Assembly (NCBI GenBank): GCA_951406725.2
Contig: OX597820.1
Coordinates: forward strand, 52,824,001-52,888,000
DNA from: Octopus vulgaris
Lineage: Eukaryota
Direction of reading: 5' to 3'
DNA length: 64,000 bases
This document shows, one piece after another, positions 36,434 to 56,806 of this stretch. Position 1 is the stretch's first letter. Each line of letters opens with the position of its first letter. The notes under the pieces were generated by a model, which did no database searches, was not told the DNA's origin, and was given only the letters and a program-made list of their open reading frames with translations. The translations under genes and the position numbers were made by a program.

Positions 36434-36437
<4 letters not shown>
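35758..36437 (+). mobile_element. Cluster of about four co-oriented SINE family D copies
   Basis: Repeated heads (cggcgagctggca, ggcggaatggttag, ggcgaggtgg, ggcggcgtgctgacag) with core and tail pieces. Confidence 0.8.
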
Positions 36438-36479
<42 letters not shown>

Positions 36480-36518
36480 AAAAAAGGTTTGAAAATGCAA
36501 TTTAAACGATGTTTATTT

Positions 36519-36559
36519 ACTTAACCGGTTTCACTCTTTGGTAAAAGATTGTCAAAAGT
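36519..36559 (-). ncRNA. Hammerhead-like motif (U3-A8 core), left arm copy
   Basis: Exact reverse complement of 41296-41336. Confidence 0.6.
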
Positions 36560-36579
36560 TACATTTAAGGAAACATTGA

Positions 36580-36760
36580 ATAATATGGGTTCAAAAAAAG
36601 TTTTTTACATAATTGTCACATTGAATATTATGCATTCAAAAAAGTTTTTTACATAATTGTCACATTGGATATTATGAATTCAAAAATGTTTTTTACATAA
36701 TTGTCACATTGGATATTATGAATTCAAAAATGTTTTTTTATACATAATTGTCACATTATT
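36580..36760. repeat. ~44-bp minisatellite, 4 units (5 units in the right arm, 41053-41280)
   Basis: Unit contains tacataattgtcacatt; counted directly in both arms. Confidence 0.9.
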
Positions 36761-37337
36761 TGGGAAAATTTGGCAGAAAAGGATAAAACAAATATATTAT
36801 TGGGAATTGGTTGCGTTAATTATTGGTTGTCGCAAATTGTCACATTACATGTATATATATACAATCTTTGGTATATATATACAGCGTTTTGACAGCAAAA
36901 ATTAAAATGGCTTTTTTGTACATCTCAGAATATTTTAAGTATGTTTTTACTGACCTGTCAGTATTAGCAGAAAGGCTGAACTGAGAGAACAGAAGAAGTA
37001 GCCAATGTGGTGTATACTTCCCCTTTATGCATGAATGATTTTGGGGTTATCAGGAGGTTAGTATGCGGGTGTGAATAGATGTGTCCGTGCCTGCTGGTCA
37101 GACAGCATCTGTTTGTCACACACATATATATACACACAAACACACACACACACAACAACACACACACACACACACACATAGTATACAAACACACACCACA
37201 TACAAACAACACACACACACACAGAACACACACACCCACACACAACGCACCCACATATATCACATATACACACAGCACACAAATATAACATGTATCTATA
37301 TATAACATACACAGATATATAACACACATACACACAC

Positions 37338-37372
<35 letters not shown>

Positions 37373-37976
37373 CACACGCACACATACATACATAATATAA
37401 ATATCACACAAATACACCTAGCATATATATACACACATACAATACACACATACAGCATGTAAGTAATATACATACACAATATATGCATGCAATATACATA
37501 CGTAATACATACATATAATATATATATATATAGACAATGCATATACATATATACACATATACATATAAATAGTGTTTACATACACATACATAGATGTACC
37601 ACATATACACACAACACACATACATACAATGCATACACATACACATACGCATACATATAATATATATATACACACACACACACATAACATACATACACAC
37701 ACAATGCATACATATATATACACGCAATGCATATACATGTATTCATGCACATATAGCACACCTACAATATACATATATACAGTGCACACATACACACAAA
37801 TATATACACTTAATTGTACACGTACATATACAATACACATACATACAATATACATATACACAATGCGCATGCAAATAATGTACATGTTTATACACACATA
37901 AACATGCAAATAAATATACACACACACACATACACACACACACATATATATACACATATATATATATATACACACA

Positions 37977-39229
37977 AATTTATTCTGCAAAACAACTTCA
38001 TGTATTTCCACAACAACACTTACAGACAGGTCTCAGGGACTGCAATGGGTACGAAAGTTGCACCTACCTATGCAAACCTGGTGATGGCCTACCTGGAATC
38101 ACATATCTATGAAAAATCCAAATATAAGTACGGCCAGTCTTTCCACAAATACCTGTTGGAGAACTGGAAACGCTACTTAGATGATTGCCTCATCCTATGG
38201 TCCCACACACTCGACCAACTTATAGACTTCAAAAACCTTATCAACAGTGTAAATAACAACATTCAATTCACAATGGAATATAGTCAGGACCAACTCCCTT
38301 TTCTTGACATCCTAATCATTAAAAAAGGCGTCAACATTGAAACTGACATCCATTACAAACCCACTGACTCTAAACAATACCTTCTATTCACCTCCAATCA
38401 CCCAAAACACACAAAGACAAATATCCCCTTCAACCTAGCGAGAAGAATCTGCACTATTGTCTCAAATGACACAACACGAAATAGAAGACTCCGGGAACTA
38501 AGGGCAATTCTTCTCGAAAGACATTACCCGGCATCACTAGTAGACAACGGAATAGAACGGGCCAAATCAATCAACATTCAAGACCTTCGAAAACCCAAAC
38601 ACATCCACAGTACAGTCAATAGCCTCCCTTATCTCTCAACACACAACCCAAGGAATGCAGAAGCTTACACTATTATATACAACAACATTCCACAACTAAA
38701 TCAAGACCCACGCCTGAAAAAAATACTGGCAGCTCATAAAATAATAAAAAGTAAGAGACAACCTAAATCCCTAAAAAACCTCCTCACCAACGCAAAATTA
38801 CACAACACAAACCCACCGCCCACCATCAAAAAATGTGGTCGCCCCAACTGTAAGACCTGCATCCACCTCATTGAGGGATCGTCGTACAAGTTCCACTCGG
38901 GACACACATTCATCATAAAAAATAACTTCACGTGCGCATCAAAAAATTTACTCTACGTCATAAGGTGTGAAGGATGCCACGAAGACTACATAGGGCAAAC
39001 GAGCCTTACCCTCAGAGACAGAATGACAGTTCACCGACAACAACTGAGGGACCCCTCCACAAGACAGATACCACTAAGTGGACACTTAGACCTTTGTGCA
39101 CACAATAAGTCCCCCAAATTCTTAGTCTTCCCACTATACCAATGCTCGGACAACACCACAGACCAAACACGAATAAATAAGGAAAGTAATCTTATTCAAA
39201 AATACAGACCACAACTAAACATACTCTAA
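37977..39229 (+). CDS. 5'-truncated PLE reverse transcriptase (motif B' onward) plus thumb, Cys linker and GIY-YIG endonuclease
   Basis: QVSGTAMGTKVAPTYANL, WKRYLDD, LPFLD, YKPTD..YL..SNHP, CGRPNCKTC, NLLYVIRCEGCHEDYIGQT..LRDR..H, E..LI..LN; no internal stops. The first ~54 codons of the listed ORF are microsatellite from the inverted arm. Confidence 0.95.
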
Positions 39230-39543
39230 CATACCCCCTGGAAGCACATCCAGAGCAAGCACACAGGGACGCGCGCACGCTCACAGCATATCGTGCGGGC
39301 GGGCACATGCGCGCATCGGCACGCATAGGACACACTAGCGGGCATTGACCGCACACATACGTGGCATGCACACGCATGCATTATATATATGTAGGTGATG
39401 TATGTGTGTGAGTGTTGTGTGTGTGTGTGTGTGTGTGTGTGCACTGTGTGCGTGTGTGTGTATATGTGTGTGTGCGCGCGTTGTTTGTGTGTGTGTGTGT
39501 GCACGTGTGTATATATGTGTGTGTGTGTGTGTGCACTGTGTGC

Positions 39544-39576
<33 letters not shown>

Positions 39577-40438
39577 CATTGTGTACGTGTGTATGTATTT
39601 ACATATGTATCTGTTTTTATATATATATATATATGTGTGTGTGTGTTGTGTGTGTATATGCATGGTATGTGTGTATATGTTAGTACTTTGTTTGTGTGTA
39701 TGTGCGGCATGTAGAGATATATTTGAGTGTGTACGCTATAGGTTTGTAATTTGTGTGTGTGGGGGGTGGTGAATTTTATATATATATATATGTGTGTGAA
39801 AAAATATATGTATGTGCATGTATGTATGTATGTATGTGTGTATATATATATATATGTGTATATATATGTGTGTGTGTGTATGTGTGTGTGTGTATATTTA
39901 TTTGCATGTTTATGTGTGTATAAACATGTACATTATTTGCATGCGCATTGTGTATATGTATATTGTATGTATGTGTATTGTATATGTACGTGTACAATTA
40001 AGTGTATATATTTGTGTGTATGTGTGCACTGTATATATGTATATTGTAGGTGTGCTATATGTGCATGAATACATGTATATGCATTGCGTGTATATATATG
40101 TATGCATTGTGTGTGTATGTATGTTATGTGTGTGTGTGTGTATATATATATTATATGTATGCGTATGTGTATGTGTATGCATTGTATGTATGTGTGTTGT
40201 GTGTATATGTGGTACATCTATGTATGTGTATGTAAACACTATTTATATGTATATGTGTATATATGTATATGCATTGTCTATATATATATATATTATATGT
40301 ATGTATTACGTATGTATATTGCATGCATATATTGTGTATGTATATTACTTACATGCTGTATGTGTGTATTGTATGTGTGTATATATATGCTAGGTGTATT
40401 TGTGTGATATTTATATTATGTATGTATGTGTGCGTGTG

Positions 40439-40489
<51 letters not shown>

Positions 40490-41295
40490 TTATATATCTG
40501 TGTATGTTATATATAGATACATGTTATATTTGTGTGCTGTGTGTATATGTGATATATGTGGGTGCGTTGTGTGTGGGTGTGTGTGTTCTGTGTGTGTGTG
40601 TGTTGTTTGTATGTGGTGTGTGTTTGTATACTATGTGTGTGTGTGTGTGTGTTGTTGTGTGTGTGTGTGTTTGTGTGTATATATATGTGTGTGACAAACA
40701 GATGCTGTCTGACCAGCAGGTACGGACACATCTATTCACACCCGCATACTAACCTCCTGATAACCCCAAAATCATTCATGCATAAAGGGGAAGTATACAC
40801 CACATTGGCTACTTCTTCTGTTCTCTCAGTTCAGCCTTTCTGCTAATACTGACAGGTCAGTAAAAACATACTTAAAATATTCTGAGATGTACAAAAAAGC
40901 CATTTTAATTTTTGCTGTCAAAACGCTGTATATATATACCAAAGATTGTATATATATACATGTAATGTGACAATTTGCGACAACCAATAATTAACGCAAC
41001 CAATTCCCAATAATATATTTGTTTTATCCTTTTCTGCCAAATTTTCCCAAATAATGTGACAATTATGTATAAAAAAACATTTTTGAATTCATAATATCCA
41101 ATGTGACAATTATGTAAAAAACATTTTTGAATTCATAATATCCAATGTGACAATTATGTAAAAAACTTTTTTTGAACCCATAATATCCAATGTGACAATT
41201 ATGTAAAAAACTTTTTTGAATGCATAATATTCAATGTGACAATTATGTAAAAAACTTTTTTTGAACCCATATTATTCAATGTTTCCTTAAATGTA

Positions 41296-41336
41296 ACTTT
41301 TGACAATCTTTTACCAAAGAGTGAAACCGGTTAAGT
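41296..41336 (+). ncRNA. Hammerhead-like motif (U3-A8 core) near the PLE 3' end
   Basis: actt TTGACAA tcttt tacc aaaga gt GAAA ccgg TT aagt. Confidence 0.6.
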
Positions 41337-41413
41337 AAATAAACATCGTTTAAATTGCATTTTCAAACCTTTTTTCTTATATAATCCCACTCGTGCGATA
41401 CCCCACAACTCAA

Positions 41414-41482
<69 letters not shown>

Positions 41483-42437
41483 TTTGTATATATATATATA
41501 TCATATGTATATATACACACACACACATATATATATTGCCTTCGAAACACGCAATGAGTCGAAACAGGGGCAGCTGAAGAAGGGGAATGTTCTTTGTATT
41601 GTTTATCTTGTACTCTGTTTTTTCGTTGTTAAAAAAGTCCGTTTCGTTATTTTGTTTTTATGTTTTCGTTTCTCGTTGTGTTCTACGTTTATTTGTGGTG
41701 TTCTGTACCCATATATGCATGTATATATATACATATAGATGTAGGTGTGTACATATATGTATGTATGTATGCATATATTTTATTTATTAAATTGTTATTA
41801 TTTATATATATATATCAAGCGCACACGCACACATACAGGGTGAAATTCCATAATGCAAAATCAACACTAAGTGTAATTTTGCTTTCATATTATTTTAAAT
41901 TTTGAATTTTGTTTTAATTATATTTTCAGTCTTCATTGCATCATTTTGTATAAGCAGCAAAATATCATATAAAAATTTAGACGAAAATTATTGTATGCAT
42001 TCCATATTTACTTACATTACCCCTGGCGTCAAAAACATATTTCCAAACGACGAATAACACTCTACTTAATATGAATATTTTGCTCGAACTTTCAGCGAAT
42101 ACATTACAAGACTAATTATGAGGTATCCTGTCGCGTATGTCTAATGTTTGGTTATCTGATATATATGCATATGTGTGACTGCGTACGCGTGGATACACTT
42201 CAGTGTGGGCGTATGTAGCTATTCATGTGTGTGAATGTCTGTCTGGAACGTAAAAATGTTCGCAACGCAAGAGCTTGGAGTTCAGTCCTGCAGCAAATTG
42301 CTCGAATAAGTGTATCTTAGTATAGCTCGGAGCTGACCAGTGTCTTGTGAATTAACTTGGTCGACAGAAGCGGTGCAGATGCCCATCGCATATGTGTGTG
42401 CTGTCGTCTTTCTGCCCGAATGAAAGAATATCTATGC

Positions 42438-52193: not shown

Positions 52194-52258
<65 letters not shown>

Positions 52259-52276
52259 TATTATATATATAGAAGG

Positions 52277-52327
52277 AGCTTCTACAGGACTAGTACTGTT
52301 TCATTCAAGAGAAATCTTCAGGAAGCT
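52277..52327 (-). ncRNA. Type I hammerhead ribozyme motif, left arm copy
   Basis: Exact reverse complement of 56661-56711. Confidence 0.8.
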
Positions 52328-52502
52328 ATTTAACAAGAATTGTATTAGCATTTATACATTTAGGCAGGTTTAAAGGAGTGGTGGTGGGGGACTTTTTTGG
52401 GGGTAGGCATAGCGCAAAATATCATACTTGGGGGAGTGGTCAAGGAGTCAGAGGTAAGTTAGATGAAAGAATAGATAAATAAAAAAATAAAAAAATAAAA
52501 AA

Positions 52503-52543
<41 letters not shown>

Positions 52544-52772
52544 AAAATAAAAAATAAAAAAATAAAATAAAAAAATAAAAAAATAAAAAAATAAAATAAA
52601 AAAATAAAAAATAAAAAATAAAAAAATAAAAAAATAAAAAATATATATAAAAAATATATATATAAAAAATATATATATAAAAAAGGGGGGATAGAGTTAT
52701 AGGTAAATAAGGAGATTCTCACTTATACCTATACACATATGTATACGTATCTACACACATATATATACACAC

Positions 52773-52819
<47 letters not shown>

Positions 52820-53121
52820 TACACACACATATACATACATATCTACATACACACATACATACACCCGCCCACATATACAAATTTATACACATGCACATGC
52901 ATATACCTGTCTACACATACACACACGTATATATGCATACACTCACTCCCATGCATGCACGCATACACACATGTATATATATACCCACGACCACGCATAC
53001 ATATATACACAGAAAAATATATATTCACACGCACATACACTCATGCACACACAACACACCTAGTTCCCTATATACACATATTTACACCTATATATACATA
53101 CACCCACATACACATATGTAC

Positions 53122-53152
<31 letters not shown>

Positions 53153-53184
53153 CAACCAAACTACTAATCCAACCAAATTAATCC

Positions 53185-53442
53185 AACCAAACTACCCACG
53201 CCGCCCACATCTGGTACCTTAAAAGGAACTCAATCCCCTTCAAGACCAAGTGGAAACTACTACAGAAGGCGCGCTCGTACACAGGAGGACATACCTGCTG
53301 TGACCTATGCATATCAGAGAGCCTAGAGATCTTGTTCGCCAAAGGCCCTCTCCTTAACAAATTTTCAGAACACTCCCCAAATTGCATGCATAAAAAGTAT
53401 GCGAACTACAAGAACTATAGACCTACCCAGCAACCTGATTGA
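53185..53442 (+). pseudogene. Last 85 codons of a Hydra-like PLE ORF (no start; absent from the ORF track)
   Basis: NQTTHAAHIWYLKRNSIPFKTKWKLLQKARSYTGGHTCCDLCISESLEILFAKGPLLNKFSEHSPNCMHKKY...QPD*: the IW.LK / KW / CxLC..E / LLN..SE / C.H motif string. Confidence 0.85.
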
Positions 53443-53678
53443 TGACAACCCCCCCCTACAACCCCCCCCCCAACCCCACTGTTCCCCTAGCACCCCCGAT
53501 TACCTTTTCTCCTAAGACCTTTCACATATTGTATGTGCACGCTTGTATATGTGTATCGTATGTATGTATATATGTATAGAAATGCATGGGTACAGTAGGA
53601 ATATACGCATGTATTATGTGTGTGTGTGTGTGTGTATGTATGCATGTAAAAATATATATGTGTGTATATATATTTGCA

Positions 53679-53711
<33 letters not shown>

Positions 53712-54348
53712 GCTTGCATGTGTGTGTGTGTGTATATATGTATATGTGTTTGTATGTATATGTGTATATATGTATATGCATGTGTATGTGTAAATGTATG
53801 TGTTTATGTATGTGTATGTATGTATAAAATATTATATAATTAGGGCTTAGTAAAATAAAATAAATTACTTTGCCACATACTAAACTTTCTAGAAATAGCA
53901 GCCAATAAAGGGTTTTAGCCTCTTCCACTACTTAGAGAATTTTTTCCCTCTAACATTGTTTACTCAAAATAATAATGGTCCCTTTACATACTGAATACTT
54001 GGTGAAATTGATTAATAACTAATTAACTTTACCCTCCCTTGTTGATATATATGTATGTATATGTGTACATGTATGTATATATATGTGTGTGTGTGTATGT
54101 GTGTATGTATGTACTTGTATATGTGTGTGTGTATATGTATGTGTGCGCGTGTGTGTGTATGTATGTGTATGTATATTTATATATGTATATGCATGTATAT
54201 ATATGTGTGTGTATATGTGTATTATGTATGTATTTATATGGATATGATATTTATATATATATGTATGTATATGCATCTGTCTGTGTGTGTGTATGTGTAT
54301 ATATGTGTATCATTATTGCGTATGTATACATGTATATGTGTATATGTA

Positions 54349-54429
<81 letters not shown>

Positions 54430-54514
54430 ATGTACATGTATATATATGTGTGTGTATATATATATATATGTTTATATGTGAGTATGTAGAGATATAAGTA
54501 TATGCATGTGTATA

Positions 54515-54549
<35 letters not shown>

Positions 54550-54702
54550 GTATGGGTATGTGTATCAGTGTATATGTATATATGTATGTGTGTGTGTATG
54601 TATAGGTATGTATATGTGTATATATGTATGTGTATATGTGTATATATGTGTATATATATGTATGTATGTGTATGTGTATGTATATGTATGTGTGTGTATG
54701 TG

Positions 54703-54762
<60 letters not shown>

Positions 54763-55037
54763 CGTGTGTGTATGTATGCATATATGTATGTATGCATGTA
54801 TATGTGTATGTATATATGTGTGTAGGTGTGTGCATATATGTATATGTAAGTATGTGTGCGTGTATGAGTATGTATGTATGTATGCTTGCACACGTGTATA
54901 TATGTGTGTGTGTGTATATATATGGATGCGCGTGCGTGTGTGCACGTGTATGGGTACGCATGTATATGTGTATGTGCGTGTATGTGTATACGTGTATGTA
55001 TGTATGTGTGTGCGTATATTTGTATATGTATGTGTGA

Positions 55038-55072
<35 letters not shown>

Positions 55073-55276
55073 TGGGTGTGTGTATGCGTATAAATGCATG
55101 TAAGTATGGATGTATGGATGTATGTATGTATGTATACGTATGTATGTGTTTGTGTGTATATGTATGTATGTGTGTGTATGTGTGTATATATATATATGTG
55201 TGTATATATGTTTGTGTATGTATATATATGTGTATGTATGTGTGTGTATGTATATATGTGTGTATGTGTATGTATG

Positions 55277-55346
<70 letters not shown>

Positions 55347-55737
55347 TAGGTATGTATCTGTATGTAGGAGTATATGTGTGTATGTATATGTGTATATATA
55401 TATATATGTATGTATATTTATTGGTGTATATGTATAGACTAGCCTCCTAAAGTGTAGACACGAATCTGTAGGTACGAGTACGTATGTGTATATACGTGAA
55501 CGTATGTAGATGTTTGTATGTATGAATATAACGCGTGCGTACGTGTATGTGTATGAGTGTACGAATGGGTGAATGTACGTGCTAATGAGTGTGCGTGCGG
55601 GAATGAGTACTTGCCTTCTAGTAGACAGACAAATGGACATGCTGCCATAGCCAGGACCCTTAGCTCTAGCGATCAAAGATAACAAAAGTAATAAATGAAG
55701 ATAATAAAATTAAAATTAGGGAATGGGCCTGTATTGG

Positions 55738-55780
<43 letters not shown>

Positions 55781-55879
55781 GTGTATGTGTAGGTATGTAT
55801 AGGTACACATGTGTATGTGTATGTGTATGTATGTGTGTATATGTATGTATGTGCACACATGTATATATATGTATGCGTG

Positions 55880-55917
<38 letters not shown>

Positions 55918-56214
55918 TATGTGTATGTGGGTGTATGTATATATAGGTGTAAATATGTGTATATAGGGAACTAGGTGTGTTGTGTGTGCATGAGTGTATG
56001 TGCGTGTGAATATATATTTTTCTGTGTATATATGTATGCGTGGTCGTGGGTATATATATACATGTGTGTATGCGTGCATGCATGGGAGTGAGTGTATGCA
56101 TATATACGTGTGTGTATGTGTAGACAGGTATATGCATGTGCATGTGTATAAATTTGTATATGTGGGCGGGTGTATGTATGTGTGTATGTAGATATGTATG
56201 TATATGTGTGTGTA

Positions 56215-56267
<53 letters not shown>

Positions 56268-56391
56268 GTGTGTATATATATGTGTGTAGATACGTATACA
56301 TATGTGTATAGGTATAAGTGAGAATCTCCTTATTTACCTATAACTCTATCCCCCCTTTTTTTATATATATATTTTTTATATATATATTTTT

Positions 56392-56433
<42 letters not shown>

Positions 56434-56660
56434 ATTTTATTTTTTATATTTTTATTTTTTTATTTTATTTTTTTTTTTTTTTTTTTATTTTATTTTTTTT
56501 TTTTTTTATTTATCTATTCTTTCATCTAACTTACCACTGACTCCTTGACCACTCCCCCAAGTATGATATTTAGCGCTATGCCTACCCCCAAAAAAGTCCC
56601 CCACCACCACTCCTTTAAACCTGCCTAAATGTATAAATGCTAATACAATTCTTGTTAAAT

Positions 56661-56711
56661 AGCTTCCTGAAGATTTCTCTTGAATGAAACAGTACTAGTC
56701 CTGTAGAAGCT
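56661..56711 (+). ncRNA. Type I hammerhead ribozyme motif, canonical core
   Basis: agcttc CTGAAGA t-ttc tctt gaa-t GAAA cag tactagtc ctg TA gaagct. Predicted cut after GUA at 56705. Confidence 0.8.
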
Positions 56712-56806
56712 CCTTCTATATAATAAATTAATTTTACTCTGCTATGTATTGAGTACCTTACTTACTGTGGTTAACCCCGAATCAACCCGGGACCTACATA
56801 TATAAA

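Follow-up and report, generated by a model that had tools for sequence, protein, structure and literature searches.

Our analysis of a 64,000-nucleotide (nt) stretch of the Octopus vulgaris genome (assembly GCA_951406725.2, contig OX597820.1, positions 52,824,001 to 52,888,000 of the forward strand; hereafter the window, with positions counted from its first letter) reveals a very young Neptune-type Penelope-like element (PLE) at 36472–41420, whose two ends form 1.5-kb inverted arms. The locus is a real, ordinary-shaped, dead copy of its family, and as a single locus it is ordinary. Specifically, the window copy is a 5′-truncated, non-autonomous insertion in (TA)n, its arms likely made in one event from the same RNA primed from opposite strands, with its source copies probably producing the reverse transcriptase-endonuclease (RT-EN) through a frameshift.

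The insertion lies between two (TA)n target tracts (36437–36477 on the left and 41420–41515 on the right). The left arm (36472–37976, minus strand, 1505 nt) is an inverted, 5′-truncated copy of the 3′ end of the element and ends inside the left tract without a tail; the right arm (39835–41383, plus strand, 1549 nt) is the distal 3′ untranslated region (UTR), or pseudo-long terminal repeat (pseudo-LTR), of the sense copy and is followed by a 37-nt tail (41384–41420, plus strand) at the right end alone. The arms are separated by a loop of ~1860 nt, starting at a head-to-head junction with 2-nt microhomology (37975–37976) and comprising a 5′-truncated RT-EN frame (37976–39229, plus strand, 417 codons and a stop) and the unpaired proximal 3′ UTR with its TG-rich microsatellite (39230–39834, plus strand). 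Each arm contains a 44-nt minisatellite (4.1 units at 36573–36757; 5.1 units at 41053–41282) and a minimal hammerhead motif directed outward, detected with a relaxed descriptor (left, 36519–36559, minus strand, with a U3-A8 core variant; right, 41296–41336, plus strand). Global alignment of the left arm with the reverse complement of the right arm yields 1502 matches, one substitution (37089/40721), two microsatellite indels (2 and 1 nt), and one additional 45-nt minisatellite unit in the right arm. The alignment exactly reproduces the arm differences listed in the original prediction, which was made from the sequence alone. The arms are 99.9% paired across 1.5 kb, and on read-through they would geometrically give the giant hairpin that had been foreseen. 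The private arm base is the one in the right arm (40721), present in 1 of 66 genomic arm copies. The tail, the (TA)n on both flanks, and the junction microhomology were not part of that prediction.

The RT-EN frame of about 417 codons that had been reported is present and turns out to be 5′ truncated. It encodes the last 417 of 758 amino acids (aa), the full length being counted from the first in-frame AUG, and matches Pfam GIY-YIG (E 1.3e-4) and, in part, RVT_1 (E 1.6e-3). The frame carries the YLDD motif, the thumb, a C-X4-C-XX-C linker, and a CCHH-type GIY-YIG; it lacks the first 341 residues of RT-EN, which form the N-terminal half of the RT, and is accompanied by no open reading frame 1 (ORF1), so the copy is non-autonomous and has no working RT. 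An ORF scan of the 64-kb window revealed no obvious host exon.

The domain order, a PLE-type RT followed by a C-terminal GIY-YIG (Pfam RVT_1 and GIY-YIG), is that of an endonuclease-containing (EN+) PLE and rules out the Naiad clade, in which GIY-YIG is N-terminal to the RT and a canonical hammerhead is absent. In the translation, C..C separates the LLY motif from the YIG motif and is followed downstream by two His residues, as in a CCHH finger; the pseudo-LTRs form partial tandems or inversions and have a tail of the 30–40-bp class; and the pseudo-LTR contains a putative hammerhead that matches the relaxed descriptor, has no Rfam match, and lacks G10.1-C11.1. Where the canonical description has a single ORF, full-length copies have ORF1 plus an RT-EN in the −1 frame. 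The Figure 1 legend of PMC8557442 permits a frameshift-separated ORF1, so two ORFs are compatible with EN+ PLE membership. Within the EN+ PLEs, the C-X4-C-XX-C linker finger, present in the window frame and nearly all homologues, fits the CX2-5CxxC type of Neptune and Nematis; 55 of 57 ends run into at least 12 nt of TA, consistent with the microsatellite insertion of Neptune; and the RT motifs, compared by eye, are nearer to the Neptune1_Ap rows than to the Nematis rows in the supplement of PMC8557442. The assignment to Neptune that had been proposed is thus supported, with the RT relationship judged by eye; Neptune itself is paraphyletic in PMC8557442.

We searched the 2.8-Gb source genome, scoring the best 100 of 29,827 candidate places and retrieving 40 top matches. 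Among the 100 places scored, 32 encode the identical 417 aa. The 1254-nt window frame is identical in DNA sequence to 16 of 37 other top copies, themselves chosen as best matches, and the mean pairwise difference among top copies is 1.8 nt, a value biased low by that selection. The youth implied by the claim of a recently active family is therefore borne out, and it is this copy whose frame is dead. Full-length copies, which the original prediction had proposed to look for, were found: the unit of ~5.83 kb begins with the tail, continues through ORF1 and RT-EN, and closes with a 3′ UTR of 2.15 kb that is rich in microsatellites and has the hammerhead at its end. Full units occur as tandems, including one of 5.83-kb period on contig C2, and as head-to-head inversions. 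RT-EN homologues number 630 at E ≤ 1e-20, the best named one being an Octopus bimaculoides protein (83%). The 34-nt hammerhead core has 674 exact matches genome-wide; on contig C1, 67 core matches form 47 loci with 20 close pairs, all 20 directed outward and none inward. With 20 of the 47 loci on C1 inverted, the layout of the window copy is common, and extrapolation from C1 and the 674 core matches leads us to expect ~200 such loci genome-wide. The arms have the standard shape of a PLE insertion: the typical layout combines an inverted 5′-truncated arm with a single terminal tail and a microsatellite or (TA)n target (PMC8557442 Figure 2 legend; PMC3846280). Some head-to-head insertions are giant, exceeding 10 kb overall and carrying an RT-EN frame in each arm (L048/L049, L046/L061, and L054/L065).

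The origin of the arms was examined in two sets of insertions: set 1, 19 inverted insertions with both outer ends matched from 41 loci chosen by ORF, and set 2, the 20 pairs on contig C1 chosen by hammerhead alone. In set 1, the tail is present at exactly one end in 19/19 (p 2e-6 if ends chose independently), on the long arm in 12 and on the short arm alone in 7. Set 2 likewise has exactly one tail in 19/19 clean pairs; a script called 16 pairs, the other four, in which point changes defeated the pattern, were read from the printed ends, and L225, whose left end runs on into ORF1, was excluded, leaving 15 script calls and four read ones. The one-tail rule thus holds in 38/38 clean inverted insertions. 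Arm haplotypes agree within 16/19 insertions versus 54/342 comparisons between insertions. Tailed ends reach at least 12 nt of TA in 29/29 cases and tail-less ends at least 14 nt of TA in 26/28, and tandem full-length copies have a (TA)n tract on either side of the tail, immediately ahead of the ORF1 start. From the one-tail rule, the short-arm tails, and the shared haplotypes, we infer twin priming on one RNA. Points that count against a single shared RNA are that the arms differ at a shared polymorphic site in 3/19 insertions, and that two RNAs made by one active source, or gene conversion after insertion, could also explain why the arms are identical.

The mechanism that we favor on balance is as follows. 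The endonuclease would nick both strands of the (TA)n target. Each of the two target 3′ ends would then pair with a different (UA)n tract of a read-through RNA in which the tail lies between these tracts. Because the priming tracts bracket the tail, one cDNA would begin with the tail and the other would begin without it; both cDNAs would stop early and then join head to head through 0–4 nt of microhomology. The hairpin of read-through RNA would be a by-product, in some copies probably edited by ADAR. L1 twin priming likewise has two target 3′ ends priming on one RNA, but the second L1 primer anneals at an internal site and each cDNA represents a different part of the RNA. In the mechanism proposed for the window family, both cDNAs are copies of one 3′ end, and the result is a duplication. 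In the literature searched, we found no study of PLE twin priming, although older Arkhipova papers may cover it. As a separate observation, the second of the two (TA)n tracts, just ahead of the ORF1 AUG, is surrounded by an inverted repeat (L032:3080-3140) that is a candidate RT-binding stem-loop; the repeat is matched in L160, L187, L191, L193, L072, and L073, with inter-family changes that look compensatory by eye.

Full-length copies, all outside the window, contain an ORF1 of 447 aa; RT-EN, in the −1 frame, overlaps it at a correctly phased U UUU UUA heptamer. ORF1 and the −1 RT-EN are both intact in 7/14 copies with the ORF1 start in view, the six U are kept in 18/21 junction copies, and the exact junction sequence occurs 56 times genome-wide. 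The −1 frameshift of HIV-1 gag-pol uses U UUU UUA; the heptamer and its phase are identical in the window family, which, unlike HIV-1, has no stem-loop stimulator. Further junctions were obtained with a genome search using a distant ORF1 and with a search of public contigs using an RT-EN alignment, which together gave four more families in this genome and relatives outside it. We compared 11 junctions, five from families of this genome and six from metagenome or metagenome-assembled genome (MAG) contigs; left out were extra copies belonging to those five families, L078 (which shares its family with L077), L128 (short of one U), L071 and L081 (heptamer absent from the 110 nt shown), and distant contigs with no ORF1 match. 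UUUUUU-A/G is in phase at 11/11 junctions. At the protein level, FL occurs within the last 45 aa of 59/70 full-size ORF1 homologues versus 7/140 control windows, and the residue before it is nearly always one that has a U-ending codon. With a slippery heptamer that is in phase, conserved, and located at the ORF overlap, the sequences make it quite likely that full-length source copies would produce an ORF1-RT-EN fusion by −1 frameshifting at U UUU UUA, and would do so without a pseudoknot. Folding against shuffles revealed no pseudoknot or stimulatory structure shared behind the heptamer among the 11 junctions. Natural ORF1-RT fusions were absent among proteins of 784–2235 aa, which is weak evidence, and the longest of the best 150 HMMER matches to ORF1 is 609 aa. 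PMC5408684 and PMC12602865 mention additional ORFs in Neptune elements, and the Figure 1 legend of PMC8557442 states, for some PLE type, that ORF1 can be frameshift-separated with a pseudoknot. That legend is the only mention of a PLE frameshift in the literature searched, which contained no study of it; older Arkhipova papers may cover the subject.

An alternative is that RT-EN is expressed with no frameshift, through splicing at the UUUUUUAG acceptor or through reinitiation at an AUG overlapping the ORF1 end. The site in the window family does resemble an acceptor, having a pyrimidine tract and AG/G; its AUG lies 4 nt ahead of the ORF1 stop codon; many database RT-EN homologues begin with Met 4–27 aa before I.NL (gene callers force a start); and PLEs are known to retain introns. 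Several features also tell directly against frameshifting: one C fewer upstream breaks the −1 phase in 4/21 junction copies; the window family and one other have an in-frame AUG beside the ORF1 stop; G follows the heptamer in 44/61 homologues, giving the look of a good 3′ splice site; and a downstream stimulator signal (z < −2) is seen at 1/11 junctions, with −0.4 for the window family and none conserved. The comparison across families speaks against splicing and reinitiation. An AUG ahead of the conserved I.NL motif is absent at 9/11 junctions and AG after the heptamer at 2/11, the residue after the heptamer cannot begin with G in 17/61 homologues, and three probable RNA runs have contigs that span the ORF1/RT-EN junction with no spliced joint. 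We therefore regard expression by splicing or reinitiation as unlikely and retain the −1 frameshift.

ORF1 has 461 relatives at E ≤ 0.001. It contains an N-terminal coiled coil, to which the PDB matches are confined (best E 2.2e-5, a designed coiled coil); no Pfam entry reached the cut-off with the single sequence or with a 100-member alignment, one weak Atlas match was obtained (0.76), and the single-sequence AlphaFold model is poor (predicted local distance difference test score 46.7). Apart from the window family, the genome holds at least four other PLE families that are young, have two ORFs, and keep ORF1 open (L160, L187, L191, and L193); their ORF1 cores are 53–58% identical to that of the window family. 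Exactly 21 nt after the heptamer (L032:4449-4484), a motif of DTRW/DTGW codons is present in 4/5 families and degenerate in the fifth; it also occurs in the ORF1 homologues P0001, P0003, P0004, and P0005, even where the Trp codon became a stop, and may be a frameshift stimulator acting at the nucleotide level.

The hammerhead motifs are found where they had been predicted, and the claim of a sense ribozyme proves overstated. The right motif is of a degenerate minimal type, with a 4-bp stem I, a U3-A8 core, a non-canonical U.U in stem II at 10.1/11.1, a palindromic CCGG instead of helix III, and a putative GUU cleavage triplet ending at 41332. Rfam at its gathering threshold gave no match in the window, and hammerhead folding is no better than in shuffles (z 0.16). 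Two sister families in this genome keep G-C at 10.1/11.1. The motif resembles minimal PLE hammerheads, which include the U3-A8 variant of Schistosoma Cercyon, in its U3-A8 covariation, in its palindromic positions 15.2-16.2, in having no real helix III, and in occurring as pairs on opposite strands; it differs from them in that U.U replaces the usual G10.1-C11.1 pair (PMC4209133). Minimal motifs of the U3-A8 type showed no cleavage in vitro as monomers and little as dimers (PMC4209133), and hammerhead cleavage is not required for PLE insertion in vitro (PMC11167929). Since the two motif copies lie on opposite strands, no dimer forms within one transcript, and the sense motif in a read-through hairpin would pair with its own antisense and be buried. 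The hammerhead is thus probably weak or inactive at this locus.

The original prediction also proposed the hairpin as a candidate ADAR substrate. We aligned four runs (X1, X3, X5, and X18), which consist of assembled contigs, to the arm part 40694–41052; it weighs on everything drawn from them that they are only presumed to be RNA. X5 has ten A>G rows with a common contig depth of 6.68, by which they were assigned to record 25; eight are absent from X18, one is present there at 54 of 80,665, one is also an older-subfamily variant, and none of the ten is present in 66–69 genomic arm copies. ADAR prefers U or A as 5′ neighbour, and U or A precedes 10/10 of the A>G sites versus 16/28 adenosines nearby. 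T>C changes at 40747, 40796, and 40810 occur in X3 and X5, from two studies, and are absent from X18 and the 66–69 genomic arms. X1 has no A>G excess, and the difference between X5 and X18 is not significant (28:8 versus 6:6, p 0.14). A contrast between arm and ORF in X5 (p 1.7e-5) was discarded, the two sets having had different thresholds. The edited X5 contig carries the other haplotype at three sites and is therefore not the window copy. These data hint that the arm sequence undergoes adenosine-to-inosine (A-to-I) editing on both strands, at the level of the family and not of this locus; the proposal survives to that extent.

These results bear on other readings of the arms. If the window copy were a hairpin gene, read through, cut by its sense ribozyme, and serving as an ADAR or small interfering RNA (siRNA) substrate with a regulatory role, then the nearly perfect pairing of the arms, the A>G rows with their 5′ neighbours, and the T>C changes recurring in two studies would all be expected; octopus is exceptionally hyper-edited, and a lizard Penelope is an example of a massively edited repeat (PMC5625713). 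The edited contig, however, comes from another copy, X1 and the X5–X18 comparison give no support, the layout is common (~200 loci of this shape expected across the genome, with a further, older example within this window), duplex formation would hide the ribozyme, and no sign of selection or promoter was found; we consider such a gene very improbable. An assembly artefact, arising from fold-back chimeric long reads or collapsed repeats, would readily produce nearly identical arms, and the junction is taken from the assembly. Yet the tail, the number of minisatellite units, and one base distinguish the two arms, their flanks are distinct, and neither the one-tail rule at 38/38 loci nor the uniformly outward C1 pairs fits an artefact, which leaves it next to no credibility.

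For head-to-head PLE repeats with palindromic junctions, the model in print, proposed for rotifer Penelope, is self-priming or fold-back, with either the first cDNA or an antisense template serving to copy the second arm (PMC3846280 Discussion). It accounts for arm identity, and two C1 pairs (L213 and L222) self-align as near-complete palindromes, which also speaks against twin priming. The short-arm tails distinguish the two: a copy of the first cDNA cannot gain a tail that its template lacks, so the seven insertions with the tail on the short arm alone contradict fold-back. In addition, cleanly mapped family junctions show loops of ~1.1–4.7 kb and microhomology of 0–4 nt rather than palindromes. 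Fold-back therefore appears improbable, and twin priming on one RNA remains the preferred origin of the arms.

Comparison with known elements places the family close to Neptune as described in PMC8557442, with which it shares the RT followed by a C-terminal GIY-YIG with CCHH, the CX2-5CxxC linker, the pseudo-LTR with hammerhead, partial tandems, the inverted 5′-truncated arm, the 30–40-bp tail, and the microsatellite target. It departs from Neptune in having a strict tail rule (38/38, versus "often" in that paper), an ORF1 with no Pfam family and no conserved pseudoknot, and an unusually long, microsatellite-rich pseudo-LTR. PAc, a Poseidon element of Anolis carolinensis, is the sole PLE reconstituted in vitro, and its protein, a predicted dimer, cuts and extends both strands (PMC11167929). 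PAc has two adjacent RT start sites bracketing the tail, an AT-rich target cut on both strands, and a hammerhead near the ORF start, which parallels what is proposed for the window family. The differences are that PAc consists of one ORF and starts at sites non-homologous to the cut DNA (PMC11167929), whereas in the window family both ends fall at (UA)n tracts that could base-pair with the (TA)n target.

Related sequences occur elsewhere in the window and beyond it. Just right of the insertion, 41540–41600 contains by eye a short remnant resembling a hammerhead or a PLE end. The second, older inverted Penelope-like insertion (52256–56732) has arms that are 84–94% complementary, a C3-G8 hammerhead at each end, (TA)n flanks, and, by eye, a short endonuclease-like C-terminal remnant (53182–53439). 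Animal PLE contigs within bacterial MAGs and symbiont genomes (L150-L156; P0022, P0040, P0049, and P0086) are likely host contamination.

The origin of the head-to-head repeats and optional tail of PLEs is described as unsettled in PMC8557442, PMC11167929, and PMC3846280. If twin priming is correct, one ribonucleoprotein with one RNA would prime on both (TA)n strands, leaving exactly one tail per inverted insertion. The family offers hundreds of nearly unmutated insertions, in which tail rule, short-arm tails, and haplotypes separate twin priming from fold-back; its insertions make a direct in vitro test of twin priming possible, and it supplies intact two-ORF copies for testing the frameshift. 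More tentatively, and short of an even chance, obligate Neptune twin priming, a structure-less U6A −1 frameshift behind a widespread helical ORF1, and ~200 hairpins feeding octopus editing may belong to one picture. At the scale of the animal, the family is a plausible and countable source of long double-stranded RNA in a heavily editing lineage.

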